Source of the DNA: an uncultured delta proteobacterium
GTDB lineage: Bacteria; Myxococcota_A; Polyangia; Polyangiales; Polyangiaceae
Assembly: GCA_963782055.1 (NCBI GenBank)
Contig: CAWAIF010000003.1
Coordinates: 5,248,001-5,312,000, forward strand
Direction: 5' to 3'
Length of the DNA: 64,000 nt
Position numbers and translations under genes: made by a program. This document shows, piece by piece, positions 8,607-19,020 of this stretch (positions are counted from its first letter, which is position 1; each line of letters begins with the position of its first letter). Under the pieces are notes generated by a model that made no database searches, was not told the DNA's origin, and saw nothing but the letters and a program-made list of their open reading frames with translations.

Positions 8607-8706
8607 GCGCATAGGAAATCCTAGCGCGGTCGGGCGCGAAAGTTTACGGAATCCATCTTATGCGAAGTGGGGCCGTCCGGTGTCACTGGAAGGACGGACC
8701 AGGGTG
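8607..8706 (-). repeat. 100-bp oriIS-like repeat, copy 1
   Basis: Identical to 15904-16003 and 17163-17262. The minus strand ends ...GGATTTCCTATGCGC, like IS91/ISCR oriIS termini (TTCCTAT + 4 nt). Confidence 0.9.
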
Positions 8707-8896
8707 GCTCGATGTCGCTGTGCTTCGCCCTGCCGGAGAAGAGCTGCACCCTTCGACAATCGCCGCGCAGAACATCACATCGTTGTAGATCAACAGGAGC
8801 CTTCCGCGTGACGACCCAGTCGGACCGCAACACCGCGCAGAACGTGAGTCAATTGCGGAGCGATTCCCAGCACCCGACGCCATGGGAGACCGCGGT

Positions 8897-9991
8897 TCAG
8901 TCACCGCCAAACGGCGGGTGTGACGCGACCCAGATGTCATACTTTCCGCCGCTCCCCGAGCGCTGACTGGTGAAGTAGAGGCTGCAGGAGTCCGGCGAGA
9001 TCCATCCTGGGATGTCCACACCCTGGTTGGAGGCAAGCTCCGTGACGACGGCGGCGTTCGCGAACAGGGAGCTCGTCGTGGCACGGTTCGCTACCCAGAC
9101 GTCGCCTCCTTGATAGTAGTACAGCGTCAGCCCGTCGCCCGTCACCACGGGATGCGGGACATCCGCGACGCCCGACACGAACACTTGCACCGGCTTGGAG
9201 CATGTCCCCTTGCCAGTGCAGTCCGCCTCGAAGAGAGGCAAGTCAGCGTTGTTGCCCTGCATGGTCAAGTACAACTTACTACCGTCCTCGGTCACATATG
9301 GCCACCGATGGAAGACGTTCGGCTGGCTGACGCCTGTCACCACCGACGGGGTGCCGAATGGCATCGCGGTGCTCGTGCGCTGGCTCACGAAGATGTCGAA
9401 GAATGACGCAGCGTCGAAGTCGTTCGACTCGAAGTACATCGTGAGCCCATCCGCCGTAACAGCCGGGGCGTCGTCTATGAGGGAGCCGTTGACGTTGCCG
9501 ACAGGCGCGACGTTGCCGAAGGCATCGCTCCTTGTCGCGCGGGTGGCCTGGTAGATGTCCACGCTCTGGTTGGCGTTCGCGCCGCGCGCGAAGTAGATCG
9601 TCAGCTCGTCGGGGCTGAGGGAGCCGACCAGCTCGTAGTCCGCCGTGTTGATGTTCCCGCCCAGCGGCGTCGGTGGCATGAAGGGCTTGCCCAGATCGCA
9701 CGGCGGCTGGCCCGAGTCGGTCGGCGCGGCGTGGTCACTTCCGTCCCCACTGGCGTCGAGGTCTGCATCGACCCCCGCGTCGAGGCCCGAGCAGTCGCAT
9801 GCCGAGTATGCCGTCCCCGCCGCGTTGCAGACCTGGTACCCGGTGCAGCTCCCGGCGCCGACGCAACTGACCGACTGGTTCGGGATGCATGCCGGGGACG
9901 ACGACACGGGGGGATCGCCTCCGCCGCACTGGAACGCGAGGGCCGCGCCGACCGCCGCGGCGGTGAATAGGACAAGGTACTGTCTCGACAT
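8897..9991 (-). CDS. Secreted or lipoprotein with a Cys-rich N-terminus and TolB/PD40-like beta-propeller repeats
   Basis: Signal peptide followed by Cys. Repeated P-x-(L/V)-(S/T)-x-D-G-x2-(L/M)-Y-F-like blades. GGAGG RBS before the ATG at 9991. Confidence 0.8.
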   Translation of the reverse strand: MSRQYLVLFTAAAVGAALAFQCGGGDPPVSSSPACIPNQSVSCVGAGSCTGYQVCNAAGTAYSACDCSGLDAGVDADLDASGDGSDHAAPTDSGQPPCDLGKPFMPPTPLGGNINTADYELVGSLSPDELTIYFARGANANQSVDIYQATRATRSDAFGNVAPVGNVNGSLIDDAPAVTADGLTMYFESNDFDAASFFDIFVSQRTSTAMPFGTPSVVTGVSQPNVFHRWPYVTEDGSKLYLTMQGNNADLPLFEADCTGKGTCSKPVQVFVSGVADVPHPVVTGDGLTLYYYQGGDVWVANRATTSSLFANAAVVTELASNQGVDIPGWISPDSCSLYFTSQRSGSGGKYDIWVASHPPFGGD

Positions 9992-10362
9992 GATGCCCTC
10001 CATCGACCGGCCGCGATGATGGCTCGTCGCCACAACAACACAGAGCACGATCCCACTCGTGGCGCAAGGCGCGGGCCTGCGCTGCCGGCTGCCGGGGACC
10101 TGGTCGTTCCCGGTCCGGCAGCGTTCTCATGGCTGGAGGCGCGCCACCAAGGCCTCCCCACTGACCGCGACCGCGCGCGTGACGGTGCCGGACGGCAAGG
10201 TCATCGTGTCGGCGCGTGTCCGCGCAGCATCCGACCACCACGGAGTCCGGCCACGTGGGGAACGCAAGCCTCAGAAGATGTTCGCGCTGCTCTGCGACGA
10301 GCCGGAGCCGAAGCTCGCCAAGTTCTTCCCACCGGAATCGAACTGCGCGTCGCCTCACACCG

Positions 10363-16896: not shown

Positions 16897-17162
16897 TGTA
16901 ATACCCCAGCGAGACTCCGGAGCCTCCTCGTCGATCCGTTAGGTCCAAAATCGCGCCCCCTGCGCCCACACGTCTCCCGTCCTCCCCTCACCCACACACC
17001 GCCATGTCAAGGACCGAGGCGCCGGACCGACTTCTTCTCCGGCGCCTGTCGCTACGAGAAGCGCCACCAGCGAAGCCGGCCGTCGAAGAGCACGAGCCGT
17101 CCGACGTGCCCGATGGCGACCTCGCGCCCGGCATGCACCTCCTCCGGCGTCCTGCCGCCGTA
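16897..17162 (-). mobile_element. Right end of the same IS481/IS3-like element, truncated by repeat copy 3
   Basis: Begins TGTAATACCCC. The minus strand encodes YGGRTPEEVH...FDGRLRWWRFS*, with several synonymous differences from the copy ending at 2943. Confidence 0.6.
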
Positions 17163-17262
17163 GCGCATAGGAAATCCTAGCGCGGTCGGGCGCGAAAGTT
17201 TACGGAATCCATCTTATGCGAAGTGGGGCCGTCCGGTGTCACTGGAAGGACGGACCAGGGTG
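17163..17262 (-). repeat. 100-bp oriIS-like repeat, copy 3 (cognate oriIS of the adjacent transposase)
   Basis: Lies 36 bp downstream of the transposase stop, the canonical oriIS position. Confidence 0.92.
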
Positions 17263-17298
17263 AGCACGCGCTAGTCGGACGGGCGCGCTGCCGCGTGG

Positions 17299-19020
17299 TC
17301 AGGCGGCGGGGGGGTCGTCTGCGGCGAGGTCGAGGAGGTCGGTCGGATCGCGGGCGCGGGCAGGTGCGGGGGCTTCGGCGGGGAGGTCGAGAGCGCGGAG
17401 GATGCGGACCACGGCGGCGTCGTCGGTGATGACGGCGAGGGGACGGAGGCGGCCCCCGCAGGTCGGGCACTGGAGCACGTCGATCTCGAAGGTGCGGCGG
17501 AGCAGGCGCGGCCAGTCGATGCGGGATGTCGCTGCGTAGAGAAGGCCGCGGCGAAGGCGCTCCCAGTGGCCCACGGCGACGACGTTGGGTGCGAGACGGC
17601 GCACGTGGAGGTCTGCGGCGGCCGCGGGTGCGGCGGGCTCGGGCGCCGGTGGCGGGACCGGGAGAGGGAGGGCGAGCTGGCCCGCGGGCGGCGCGCTCGT
17701 GGTGCTGGCCGCCCCCGCGGGATCGCGGCGCACGGGGTCGGGCCTCTCTGCCGCATGTGTGGTGTCGCGATGCTCCCGCCTCTCGATGGGCTGCCCGGGT
17801 TTCGCGGGGACGAGGGGTCGCGGAGGACGCGGACGCCCGCAGGACGGGGCGGACGGCTCACGCGGCCTGGGGACCACGAGCTTCCGCCACGACAATCGGG
17901 GGGCGAGGACACCGTGGTAGCGGACAAGTGGGTAGCGCGGCGGCGGGACGAGCGCGGCGACGCGGGCGAGGAGCTCCACCGGAGTGAGGATCATGTGCTT
18001 CGCCTTGCCCGCGCGCGGCTGCTTGACGCGGTAGGCGACGCGGCCGTCGCGCAGGAGGCGTAGGCGCGAGAGGGCGAGCGCGGGGCGCAGGGCGTAGCGG
18101 CAGAGGCGCTCGCGGGCGAGGTCGTCCCGGACGCGGACGCCGGCGTGGAGGTTGAAGCCGGTGTCCTCCACCGCGCGGTGAGCCATGGCGGGGGCGGCTG
18201 CGTCGTCGTCGTCGTCGTCGCCGGGGTCGATCGCGAGCTTCAGCACCTTCGGACGCTGCATCGCGAGAGCCACGCAGGCGTCGAGGGCGCTCGGCTCGAC
18301 GTCGAGGTCCACCGGATCCTCGGAGAGGTGACCGTGGCGGCGGAGCCACGCGATGGCGCGACGGCTGACGGCGGTGACGAGCTGCTGCAGCTCGGCGCGG
18401 GTGGGCATCGGCAAGGGCACGAAGCCGAGGGAGCCGTCCGGCTCGCGCAGGAAGACGCCGTCCATGACGATGGTGTGGAAGTGGACGTTGAGGTTGAGGC
18501 TTCCCCCGAAGCGCTGGACGCAGGTGACCGCGCCGCTGGCGACCTGATCGAACCCCGCTGCGCGGGCGCGGCGGCGGTGGCTGGCGAAGATGGCGTCCGC
18601 GAAGATGCGCGCGAGCGCGCGGAGCACCACGGGGTCGAAGGCGGCGAGGCGGCGGAGCTCGTACGGAAGGGACAGGACGTACTGGCGGAGGGGGACGTCC
18701 GGGAGGACGCGGTCGACCAGGTGGGCGGCGGTGTTCGCCATGCGGCGTCCCGCGCAGCTCGGGCAGACGCCGCGGCCCTTGCAGGAGAACGCGACGAGCA
18801 GATCGTGGCCGCAGGCGTCGCAATGCGCGCGCAGGAAGCCGTGGCGAAAGACGCCGCACTTCAGGTAGCCGCGGAGATCCTGCTCGACGTAGCGGGGGAC
18901 GGGCTTGCTGTAGCTCTCGCGCGCCCAGCGGAGGAAGGTCTGCAGGCCGGCGCGGACGAGGCGGTAGAGCGGCGTCTCGGTAGGCTGCCGAGGCGCGTAC
19001 GGCGCGGCGAGGGACGACAC
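17299..19020 (-). CDS. IS91/ISCR-family rolling-circle (HUH) transposase
   Basis: Zn-binding domain (YLKCG...CDAC...SCKGRGVCPSC), HUH motif NVHFH, single-Tyr ISCR-type RLCRYALRP, VRYHGVLAP, C-terminal CPTCGG. The GTG start at 19020 is inferred. Confidence 0.93.
   Translation of the reverse strand: MSSLAAPYAPRQPTETPLYRLVRAGLQTFLRWARESYSKPVPRYVEQDLRGYLKCGVFRHGFLRAHCDACGHDLLVAFSCKGRGVCPSCAGRRMANTAAHLVDRVLPDVPLRQYVLSLPYELRRLAAFDPVVLRALARIFADAIFASHRRRARAAGFDQVASGAVTCVQRFGGSLNLNVHFHTIVMDGVFLREPDGSLGFVPLPMPTRAELQQLVTAVSRRAIAWLRRHGHLSEDPVDLDVEPSALDACVALAMQRPKVLKLAIDPGDDDDDDAAAPAMAHRAVEDTGFNLHAGVRVRDDLARERLCRYALRPALALSRLRLLRDGRVAYRVKQPRAGKAKHMILTPVELLARVAALVPPPRYPLVRYHGVLAPRLSWRKLVVPRPREPSAPSCGRPRPPRPLVPAKPGQPIERREHRDTTHAAERPDPVRRDPAGAASTTSAPPAGQLALPLPVPPPAPEPAAPAAAADLHVRRLAPNVVAVGHWERLRRGLLYAATSRIDWPRLLRRTFEIDVLQCPTCGGRLRPLAVITDDAAVVRILRALDLPAEAPAPARARDPTDLLDLAADDPPAA

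Follow-up and report, generated by a model that had tools for sequence, protein, structure and literature searches.

What do identical non-coding repeats, set between blocks of unrelated and partly truncated genes next to a rolling-circle transposase, represent: a dedicated system for the acquisition of foreign DNA, or the products of known transposition processes? This question is raised by a 64,000-nucleotide (nt) stretch (hereafter the window) of the chromosome of an uncultured delta proteobacterium, in which a 100-nt repeat occurs three times beside a transposase gene of the ISCR/IS91 type. The original prediction for this locus held that a stationary HUH transposase inserts fragments at its own origin and duplicates the repeat each time, much as integrons or clustered regularly interspaced short palindromic repeats (CRISPR) grow. 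Our analysis suggests that the repeat is, rather, probably a miniature non-coding member of an IS91/ISCR-family rolling-circle system active in this genome, and that the blocks between the repeats came about through one-ended transposition, premature termination and rearrangement. The genome comprises three contigs; positions refer to the window unless prefixed by C3, the 7.0-Mb chromosome contig, or C2, a second contig of 557 kb. The labels IS-A and IS-B (two insertion sequences, ISs), S and U (two blocks of DNA) and R1-R3 (the three repeats) were coined in this analysis. Open reading frames (ORFs) and proteins were compared with the Pfam and NCBIfam profile libraries and the repeat unit also with Rfam; four same-genus relatives were fetched for synteny, and a wider set of relatives (n=30) was searched.

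A repeat search of the window returned 102-nt matches at 8606-8707, 15903-16004 and 17162-17263, which upon alignment share an identical 100-nt core, GCGCATAGG...CCAGGGTG, with unrelated flanks; these cores are R1 and R2 (Table 1) and R3, at 17163-17262. Three exact 100-mers far exceed chance occurrence, and their positions, as well as the spacers of 7197 bp (5742 bp without an IS4-family element) and 1159 bp between them, agree with what had been predicted. R3 lies at the terminus of IS-B, an ISCR-like element of which the unit constitutes the last 100 nt. The same unit can be composed from a second element, the 2.6-kb IS-A, by fusing about 54 nt of its left end and about 48 nt of its right end across a CTT microhomology, and half-copies of the unit (its positions 1-62 and 52-102) flank IS-A. 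Given that CTTGGACGAAG, found near the left end of every IS-A copy, and CTTATGCGAAG, found near the right end, together account for the junction within the unit, the latter is an internal-deletion derivative of IS-A. The opposite relationship, wherein the unit would be a target site entered by IS-A with duplication of the target, was excluded because the two 11-mers differ identically in every IS-A copy. Comparison of nine bracketed inserts showed seven to be IS-A (97-99.9%), one to be IS-A with an extra insert and one to be a different IS with a 9-bp target duplication. The mini-element at C3 4450559-4452183 is interrupted by an IS other than IS-A, which has inverted ends and a 9-bp target duplication (CTTATGCGA) and lies at nearly the same point that the interior of IS-A would occupy.

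Folded as a single strand, the unit forms one robust hairpin near the CCAGGGTG end, resembling a terminator 100 nt from the element end, and has a palindrome at the opposite terminus. The two ends are dissimilar, which leaves the unit without terminal inverted repeats; direct repeats of more than 2 nt flank none of the 19 full copies in the genome, i.e. there is no target duplication. Hence the unit lacks both the inverted repeats and the target duplication by which a miniature inverted-repeat transposable element (MITE) is recognized, and "miniature rolling-circle element" is a better name for it. Simple MITE insertion with rejoining flanks was likewise rejected: rejoining could be demonstrated at no copy, as had been claimed earlier, and paralogous or source sequences correspond to just one of the two flanks (for instance, the hairpin site between Rhs cassettes is matched by the left flank alone at C3 4437618 and by the right flank alone at C3 5244567). 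No end-to-end fold of the attC type was found in the unit, its hairpins being local (z about -1.3), nor was a recombinase-type core with spaced arms; an Rfam scan of the unit gave no family, a tRNA scan of the unit and region gave no tRNA, and neither a sigma-70 promoter nor a terminator was predicted within it. An exact head-to-tail tandem of two mini-elements, with the hairpin end of one directly joined to the GCGCATAGG end of the other, is found at C3 4433279-4433480; such an arrangement would be expected of a circle junction or of a tandem insertion.

The gene adjoining the repeats is of the ISCR/IS91 type, just as predicted. The transposase ORF of IS-B extends on the minus strand from 17302 to no further than 19125, and its product matches the Pfam families Y2_Tnp (1.1e-27) and Zn_Tnp_IS91 (2.9e-16), with ISCR clade Ia as the best NCBIfam match (2.7e-81); as the score of 273.6 bits is far under the cut-off of 925, IS-B is not a member of that clade. 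IS-A, which is present at 13 loci, including positions inside the arrays described below, encodes a tyrosine recombinase followed by an IS91 transposase. The transposase (ORF2) matches Y2_Tnp (3.5e-49), Zn_Tnp_IS91 (5.3e-30) and the NCBIfam equivalog transpos_IS91 (389.7 bits against a cut-off of 125), while ORF1 (L051 137-1075) is a Xer/IntI-like recombinase (Phage_integrase, 8.7e-40) whose best NCBIfam match, in two stretches, is the integron integrase profile integrase_gron at 198.2 bits, under its cut-off of 265. Both transposases possess the HUH motif (HFH/HVH); in an alignment of these two sequences only, IS-A shows two tyrosines (YLGRY) and IS-B one at the aligned place (RLCRY), which would be like the single catalytic tyrosine of the ISCR enzymes. 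Further copies of IS-B at C3 4409624-4411592 (97.6%) and, in partial form, at C3 2741136-2742741 place this 1965-bp unit at three chromosomal sites, which removes the stationary enzyme from the earlier proposal. All three copies have the boundary at 17159/17163 in common, and the boundary at 19127 with the far end ...CCGGACACCCCGGACACCC is shared by the copy at C3 4409624-4411592. One relative carries IS-A-like (77%) and IS-B-like elements with termini differing from those seen here. For an isolated IS-A copy at 5.98 Mb, which lies in strain-specific DNA, no empty site was found.

To place the window in its genomic context, the unit was compared with the whole genome, giving 67 blastn matches (41 in a further search). 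Full-length copies of at least 95% identity number 19, and all of them fall in three arrays (Table 1) with none scattered elsewhere; their identity is 95-100%, and most are in direct orientation. An IS-B copy closes each array, with its far end turned towards conserved core DNA and the array extending from its unit-bearing side, so that every IS-B in the genome has an array beside it, in line with the expectation that such arrays accompany the transposase. Element ends are oriented alike in 7/7 (+), 32/39 (-) and 23/23 (+) cases in the arrays at 2.7, 4.4 and 5.2 Mb, respectively. Identity to the unit falls with distance from IS-B in the 4.4-Mb (rho -0.62, n=39) and 5.2-Mb (rho -0.80, n=23) arrays; thus, the claim that the newest copies lie nearest the transposase stands for these two to the extent that the most identical copies lie there, but not for the 2.7-Mb array, where the trend is not significant (n=7). 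A bias tied to replication direction was rejected as the source of the co-orientation, since the 4.4- and 5.2-Mb arrays are on the same GC-skew arm in opposite orientation, although the skew is weak.

The window region holds the IS-B end of a 94-kb low-GC island that also carries other ISs (IS4 and an IS66-like element). The Memo/AmrB-like gene on the far side of IS-B is conserved at 71-77% in six same-genus relatives, and in all four fetched for synteny it lies 20-140 bp from the orthologue of C3 5172106-5173202. The adjacency of these core genes in 4/4 relatives implies that approximately 94 kb fills a single intergenic site, bounded on the right by the far end of IS-B; comparison of this locus across relatives, from which a conserved transposase with variable cargo had been anticipated, thus found the site empty. 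The gene adjoining the IS-B copy at 4.41 Mb is conserved in 4/4 relatives as well. Short weak similarities aside, region 1-17162 turned up in none of the 30 relatives searched. The full 100-nt unit was found in none of five same-genus genomes, four of which have partial matches, and exact-pattern scans of one genome per species gave no match to the origin motif and one to the hairpin motif, a chance match upstream of a metK-like gene.

Examination of the DNA between the units supports the view that the repeats are IS91/ISCR-type ends marking blocks of cut, unrelated DNA. Four gene cuts at repeat edges had been proposed, and two of these stand, that of the TcB/TcC gene at 8606 and that of the toxin at 16004, whereas for the "IS transposase" cut at 17162 and the "Gly-rich gene" cut at 15903 confirmation was not obtained. 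The TcB/TcC remnant retains TcdB_toxin_midC (2.1e-35), only positions 131-164 of the 181 of TcdB_toxin_midN, and Rhs_assc_core (5.5e-21) in the frame 3664-8100, with one frame running from 8620 to about 6900 and another on to 3664; its residue 3 aligns with residue 97 of the relative P0012. No other match to TcdB_toxin_midN, nor any to SpvB, was detected in the genome, indicating that the missing part was not simply displaced. The toxin end starting at 16004 (about 190 residues) is matched at E<=1e-5 by 51 homologues of greater length, many of them carrying RHS or TcdB domains, and aligns with residues 1648-1841 of the 1841-residue P0012. The missing halves of the cut genes are not present in the genome. 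The small ORF that follows is possibly an immunity gene, judging by its position. At 16897-17160 no transposase family was matched, and the ORF at 14087-15940, the supposed Gly-rich gene, gave no Pfam or NCBIfam match, with a best Protein Atlas value of 0.79, under the level that counts.

Without its IS4 (8707-12055 and 13501-14054), block S matches C3 5223968-5227860 at 100% identity and C3 2734806-2738679 at 100%/99.4%; these two copies do not have the IS4, which is a later insertion. The window copy of S starts exactly at the hairpin end of R1. In the second copy, which has 150 bp extra on the left, the left boundary coincides exactly with the hairpin end of an IS-A and the right boundary falls at the GCGCATAGG end of a unit, while the third continues leftwards without an element and meets a unit 23 bp earlier. 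At 4.41 Mb, the 340 bp that separate IS-B from an inverted unit match, with 100% identity, a locus on C2 that is uninterrupted. Together, these junctions show that element ends are places where unrelated DNA is joined, and that the junctions vary on the GCGCATAGG side. The flanks on this side of the three IS-B copies are all different, being the toxin cassette, the 340-bp C2-like piece and other DNA, respectively.

Table 1. Repeat units, associated elements, cargo and neighbouring genes of the window, and the arrays of full unit copies on C3
Feature	Position	Strand	Remarks
TcB/TcC (Rhs-type) fused toxin remnant	3664..8620	-	5' end missing; cut at 8606; frame change near 6900
R1	8607..8706	+	Solo 100-nt mini-element; GCGCATAGG end (two palindromes), hairpin and CCAGGGTG end
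Block S	8707..14054		3903 bp without IS4; three copies in genome
PD40/OmpA-like gene	8900-10126	-	Pfam PD40; in block S
Unnamed ORF	10366-10908	-	In block S
Sel1-repeat gene	from 10912	-	Pfam Sel1; interrupted by IS4; in block S
IS4-family IS	12056..13500	-	transpos_IS4_1 4.2e-48; 10-bp target duplication; at least 12 near-identical copies elsewhere
Block U	14055..15903		Single-copy; continuous with S in the window copy only; no gene confirmed
R2	15904..16003	+	Solo 100-nt mini-element
Polymorphic (Rhs/TcB-TcC type) toxin C-terminal domain	16004..16588	+	5' part missing; cut at R2 edge
90-residue ORF	16588..16860	+	Start overlaps toxin stop; no paralogue, no family match
Inverted copy of Rhs inter-cassette sequence	16897..17160		Compare 2835-3096; stops at R3 edge
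IS-B	17163..19127	-	1965-bp ISCR-like rolling-circle element; R3 is its terminal 100 nt; far end ...CCGGACACCCCGGACACCC
Core genome edge	19128..20479	+	Memo/AmrB-like gene 19181-20479 (Memo 2.5e-41); GC up to 73-74%; right island edge
Full-copy arrays	2.73-2.74 Mb		2 copies
	4.41-4.44 Mb		12 copies
	5.23-5.27 Mb		5 copies, the last three being those of the window

Several features suggest that the GCGCATAGG end is the origin (oriIS) of the element and that the hairpin with the CCAGGGTG end is its terminator (terIS). The former is situated downstream of the transposase gene of IS-B (136 nt from the stop codon), as in ISCR/IS91 elements, and has two palindromes against one at the other end, as do the oriIS and terIS, respectively, of IS91 and IS801; furthermore, 3 of the 13 IS-A loci are missing the hairpin end as opposed to 1 of 13 missing the GCGCATAGG end. 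The unit end also presumably resembles the published oriIS consensus sequences. The literature places the origin end of ISCR/IS91 elements downstream of the transposase gene (PMC13393415, PMC6218425, PMC5737581) and describes two palindromes at the IS91 oriIS and one at its terIS (PMC13181058).

With this polarity, known IS91-family behavior accounts for most of the observations. Solo units could be generated by rolling-circle transfer that starts at the origin and halts at the hairpin 100 nt on. Transfer from IS-B would then mostly yield 100-nt units, with read-through giving rise to IS-B itself or to a unit with cargo, and products that pass the hairpin would carry neighboring DNA, i.e. one-ended transposition. 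Such products, along with deletions and recombination at element ends, might accumulate head to tail on the origin side of IS-B until they form an island, of which 8607-19127 would be the youngest, IS-B-proximal end. Precedents are found in earlier reports: one-ended transposition of IS91 amounts to 1-10% of events and up to about half (PMC13181058); IS801 produces fixed-length origin-end miniatures of 229, 360 and 679 nt through premature termination, in 26% of events, and mobilizes 290-1431 nt of adjoining DNA (PMC3189936); and in ISCR1 the oriIS side is the variable side (PMC6218425). The IS801 miniatures also contradict a premise of the original prediction, namely that IS91 biology leaves no transposase-free oriIS copies of fixed length.

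The way in which the units are ordered, their shared orientation and their gradient of identity suggest that new products insert at resident origin junctions or close to them. We would therefore propose, only tentatively, that the junction between flank and resident origin, above all that of IS-B, might be a preferred integration site for the unit alone or for the unit with read-through cargo, resulting in a one-directional and roughly chronological stack. Recombination among identical units, or the recombinase of IS-A, may contribute in place of entry at origin junctions.

A number of observations weigh against the rolling-circle interpretation or the polarity given to it. The genes of IS-A run away from the presumed origin and towards the presumed terminator, contrary to the arrangement in IS91, and as those of IS-A and IS-B are opposite relative to the ends, one of the two must be non-canonical. 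Beside the presumed origin no target tetranucleotide of the GAAC/CAAG type was found, only a common purine at -1, and on the hairpin side 18 of the 36 ends are followed by GC, against about 5 expected from base composition. A shared terminator-to-cargo junction with variable cargo length is the classic mark of one-ended transposition; among the loci compared no pair with one such junction and differing cargo lengths was found, the only shared junction being that of IS-B itself. The gradient was calculated with a reference copy from the young end, with truncated matches that score low and with both ends of one copy counted separately. At the left edge of the island no element end abuts a core gene. 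Neither movement nor a circle or circle junction was observed, and in public reads the stretch was represented by low-depth short contigs from four soil-metagenome runs of a single study, none of which bridged the unit.

The alternative that deserves most attention is that mini-elements and IS-A inserted independently into a dispensable foreign island, with homologous recombination later producing the flanks and the triplicate, without any transduction of cargo or polar growth. The mostly direct, 95-100% identical copies would be good substrates for such recombination, the island is low in GC and rich in other ISs (IS4, IS66-like), and the order S-U-unit in the window could give both S/unit junctions through deletion. 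Moreover, most genomic IS801 fragments have been ascribed to reorganization instead of one-ended transposition (PMC3189936). Nevertheless, we regard this account as rather unlikely, as it gives no reason to expect a nearly uniform orientation with respect to IS-B in three separate arrays, the presence of IS-B at the core boundary every time or the identity gradient, and it cannot borrow an explanation from replication direction, which leaves the opposite orientation of two arrays on one GC-skew arm unaccounted for. An artefact of the metagenome-derived assembly, with chimeric joins through a collapsed repeat, might be invoked because the only runs in which the stretch was detected are soil metagenomes, with no contig bridging a junction. 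Yet it is scarcely credible for a three-contig genome with a 7.0-Mb chromosome contig, in which the 100-nt repeats are far below long-read length, three loci show the same architecture with element boundaries that agree, and the IS4 that inserted later has a clean 10-bp duplication.

Two other accounts view the units as sites of a dedicated insertion process. In one, the tyrosine recombinase of IS-A would use them as attachment sites, with circles of unit plus cargo integrating at a resident unit, akin to integron cassettes or to the tandem accretion of genomic islands. This is consistent with the integron-integrase affinity of ORF1, with the direct identical repeats flanking the blocks and with the exact unit-unit tandem at C3 4433279/4433379, and integrase-driven movement of an ISCR-related unit has been shown elsewhere (PMC9376610). 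We nonetheless hold it to be improbable: the score of ORF1 remains under the family cut-off, the unit has neither the spaced-arm recombinase core nor the attC-like fold, the arrays are capped by IS-B, which has no integrase, and the junction between cargo and unit varies (e.g. by 23 bp), unlike in a conservative site-specific exchange inside the unit. The other account is that of the original prediction, a stationary HUH enzyme that inserts fragments at its own oriIS with duplication of the unit, thereby building an adaptive archive. Arrays beside all three IS-B copies, with units co-oriented and most identical nearest IS-B, fit it, and the direct repeats between foreign inserts and apparently polar order are shared with integron and CRISPR arrays. 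Against this, IS-B is mobile, the unit also forms the ends of IS-A, which itself lies inside the arrays, the cargo is gene debris including pseudogenes and other ISs, the site is empty in the four relatives and the unit occurs only as partial matches among the five same-genus genomes. In contrast to integrons, there is no IntI above the cut-off, no attI/attC fold and no promoter, and the inserts are fragments or ISs rather than single promoterless genes. CRISPR loci pair short repeats of about 23-47 nt with short spacers and are accompanied by cas genes, as opposed to a repeat of 100 nt and inserts of 1.2-7.2 kb here, with no cas family among the ORFs scanned in 1-24500. As no evidence points to a CRISPR- or integron-like acquisition function, we consider this account very improbable.

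Returning to the interpretation of the unit as a miniature rolling-circle element, the gathering of genes by elements of this kind is known, and the present genome displays it in an unusually orderly, one-directional form. IS-A resembles a grouping in ISfinder of IS91-family members with a tyrosine-recombinase ORF upstream of the transposase, in that its own Phage_integrase ORF precedes the gene of its IS91 equivalog transposase. By analogy only, Helitrons also occur in abundant copies that are non-autonomous, carry a hairpin close to one end and pick up gene fragments by read-through, although their enzymes belong to another family (Rep-helicase) and their hosts are eukaryotes. With IS91, IS801 and IS1294 the system shares an HUH transposase with a zinc-binding domain, two unlike palindromic ends and the lack of target duplication, and also fixed-length transposase-free fragments of one end and variable-length mobilization of adjacent DNA (PMC13181058, PMC3189936). 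It differs from IS91 and IS801 in that the fixed-length product has a full terminator-like hairpin, making it a complete minimal element of 100 nt, in that this unit is common to two autonomous elements with opposite gene direction, and in its long co-oriented stacks and missing GAAC/CAAG-type tetranucleotide at the presumed origin. With ISCRs, such as ISCR1 of complex class 1 integrons, it shares the presumed origin end downstream of the gene, the best family match (ISCR clade Ia) and origin-side DNA that is variable and different at each copy (PMC6218425, PMC13393415). In contrast to ISCRs, IS-B scores far below the clade cut-off and has a recognizable far end common to two copies, the cargo is toxin-gene debris in a soil bacterium and not resistance genes, and the blocks are parted by 100-nt units, not by whole ISCR copies. 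What is new here is the 100-nt unit of origin plus terminator common to two autonomous elements, the three arrays capped by IS-B at the core boundary and the identity gradient; no description of such units in arrays capped by an ISCR-like element was found in the literature, which is not proof of its absence.

These findings bear on the assembly of resistance and virulence regions, for which ISCR/IS91 elements have been blamed while the route by which varied genes reach the oriIS side is unsettled; ISCR transposition itself is described as never having been demonstrated experimentally (PMC6218425, PMC13393415). The genome offers a natural record, with a minimal 100-nt unit, two candidate helper enzymes and three independent arrays that seem to be age-ordered from the point of entry at the core genome. 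Polar growth, if true, would provide a mechanism for the long-puzzling diversity of genes on the ISCR oriIS side, and would preserve the idea of the original prediction minus its "stationary" and "adaptive" parts. If only the ordinary rolling-circle interpretation holds, the locus is still a clean example of such elements shredding and shuffling polymorphic-toxin loci. In either case, the unit and the enzymes of IS-A and IS-B are concrete substrates for assays, and integration at a resident origin junction is a testable rule.

Several additional observations concern the surroundings of these elements. C3 starts about 15 bases from a GCGCATAGG end (position 15, minus strand), implying that the assembly may have broken at such an element. 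On C2, positions 551789-552108 are distantly related (69%) to the origin end of IS-B and the tail of its transposase, about 8 kb from the locus matching the captured 340-bp piece if C2 is circular. Upstream of the repeats, window positions 1-5600 comprise an Rhs/TcC cassette array with two modules of about 1.5 kb in a 3.03-kb period (977-2486 versus 4010-5525, 93.6%), each with an Rhs_assc_core followed by a differing C-terminal end, as is typical of orphan toxin cassettes. At 5922-8100 all three minus-strand frames are open for about 2 kb, with a GC skew of +0.26 to +0.33, which makes ORF lists misleading there. The inter-cassette sequence of about 200-260 bp at 2485-2752 recurs at no fewer than 17 other genome sites with 81-97% identity and holds a hairpin (GGTACGCCTCCGGCGTACC), and two mini-elements elsewhere adjoin that very point.

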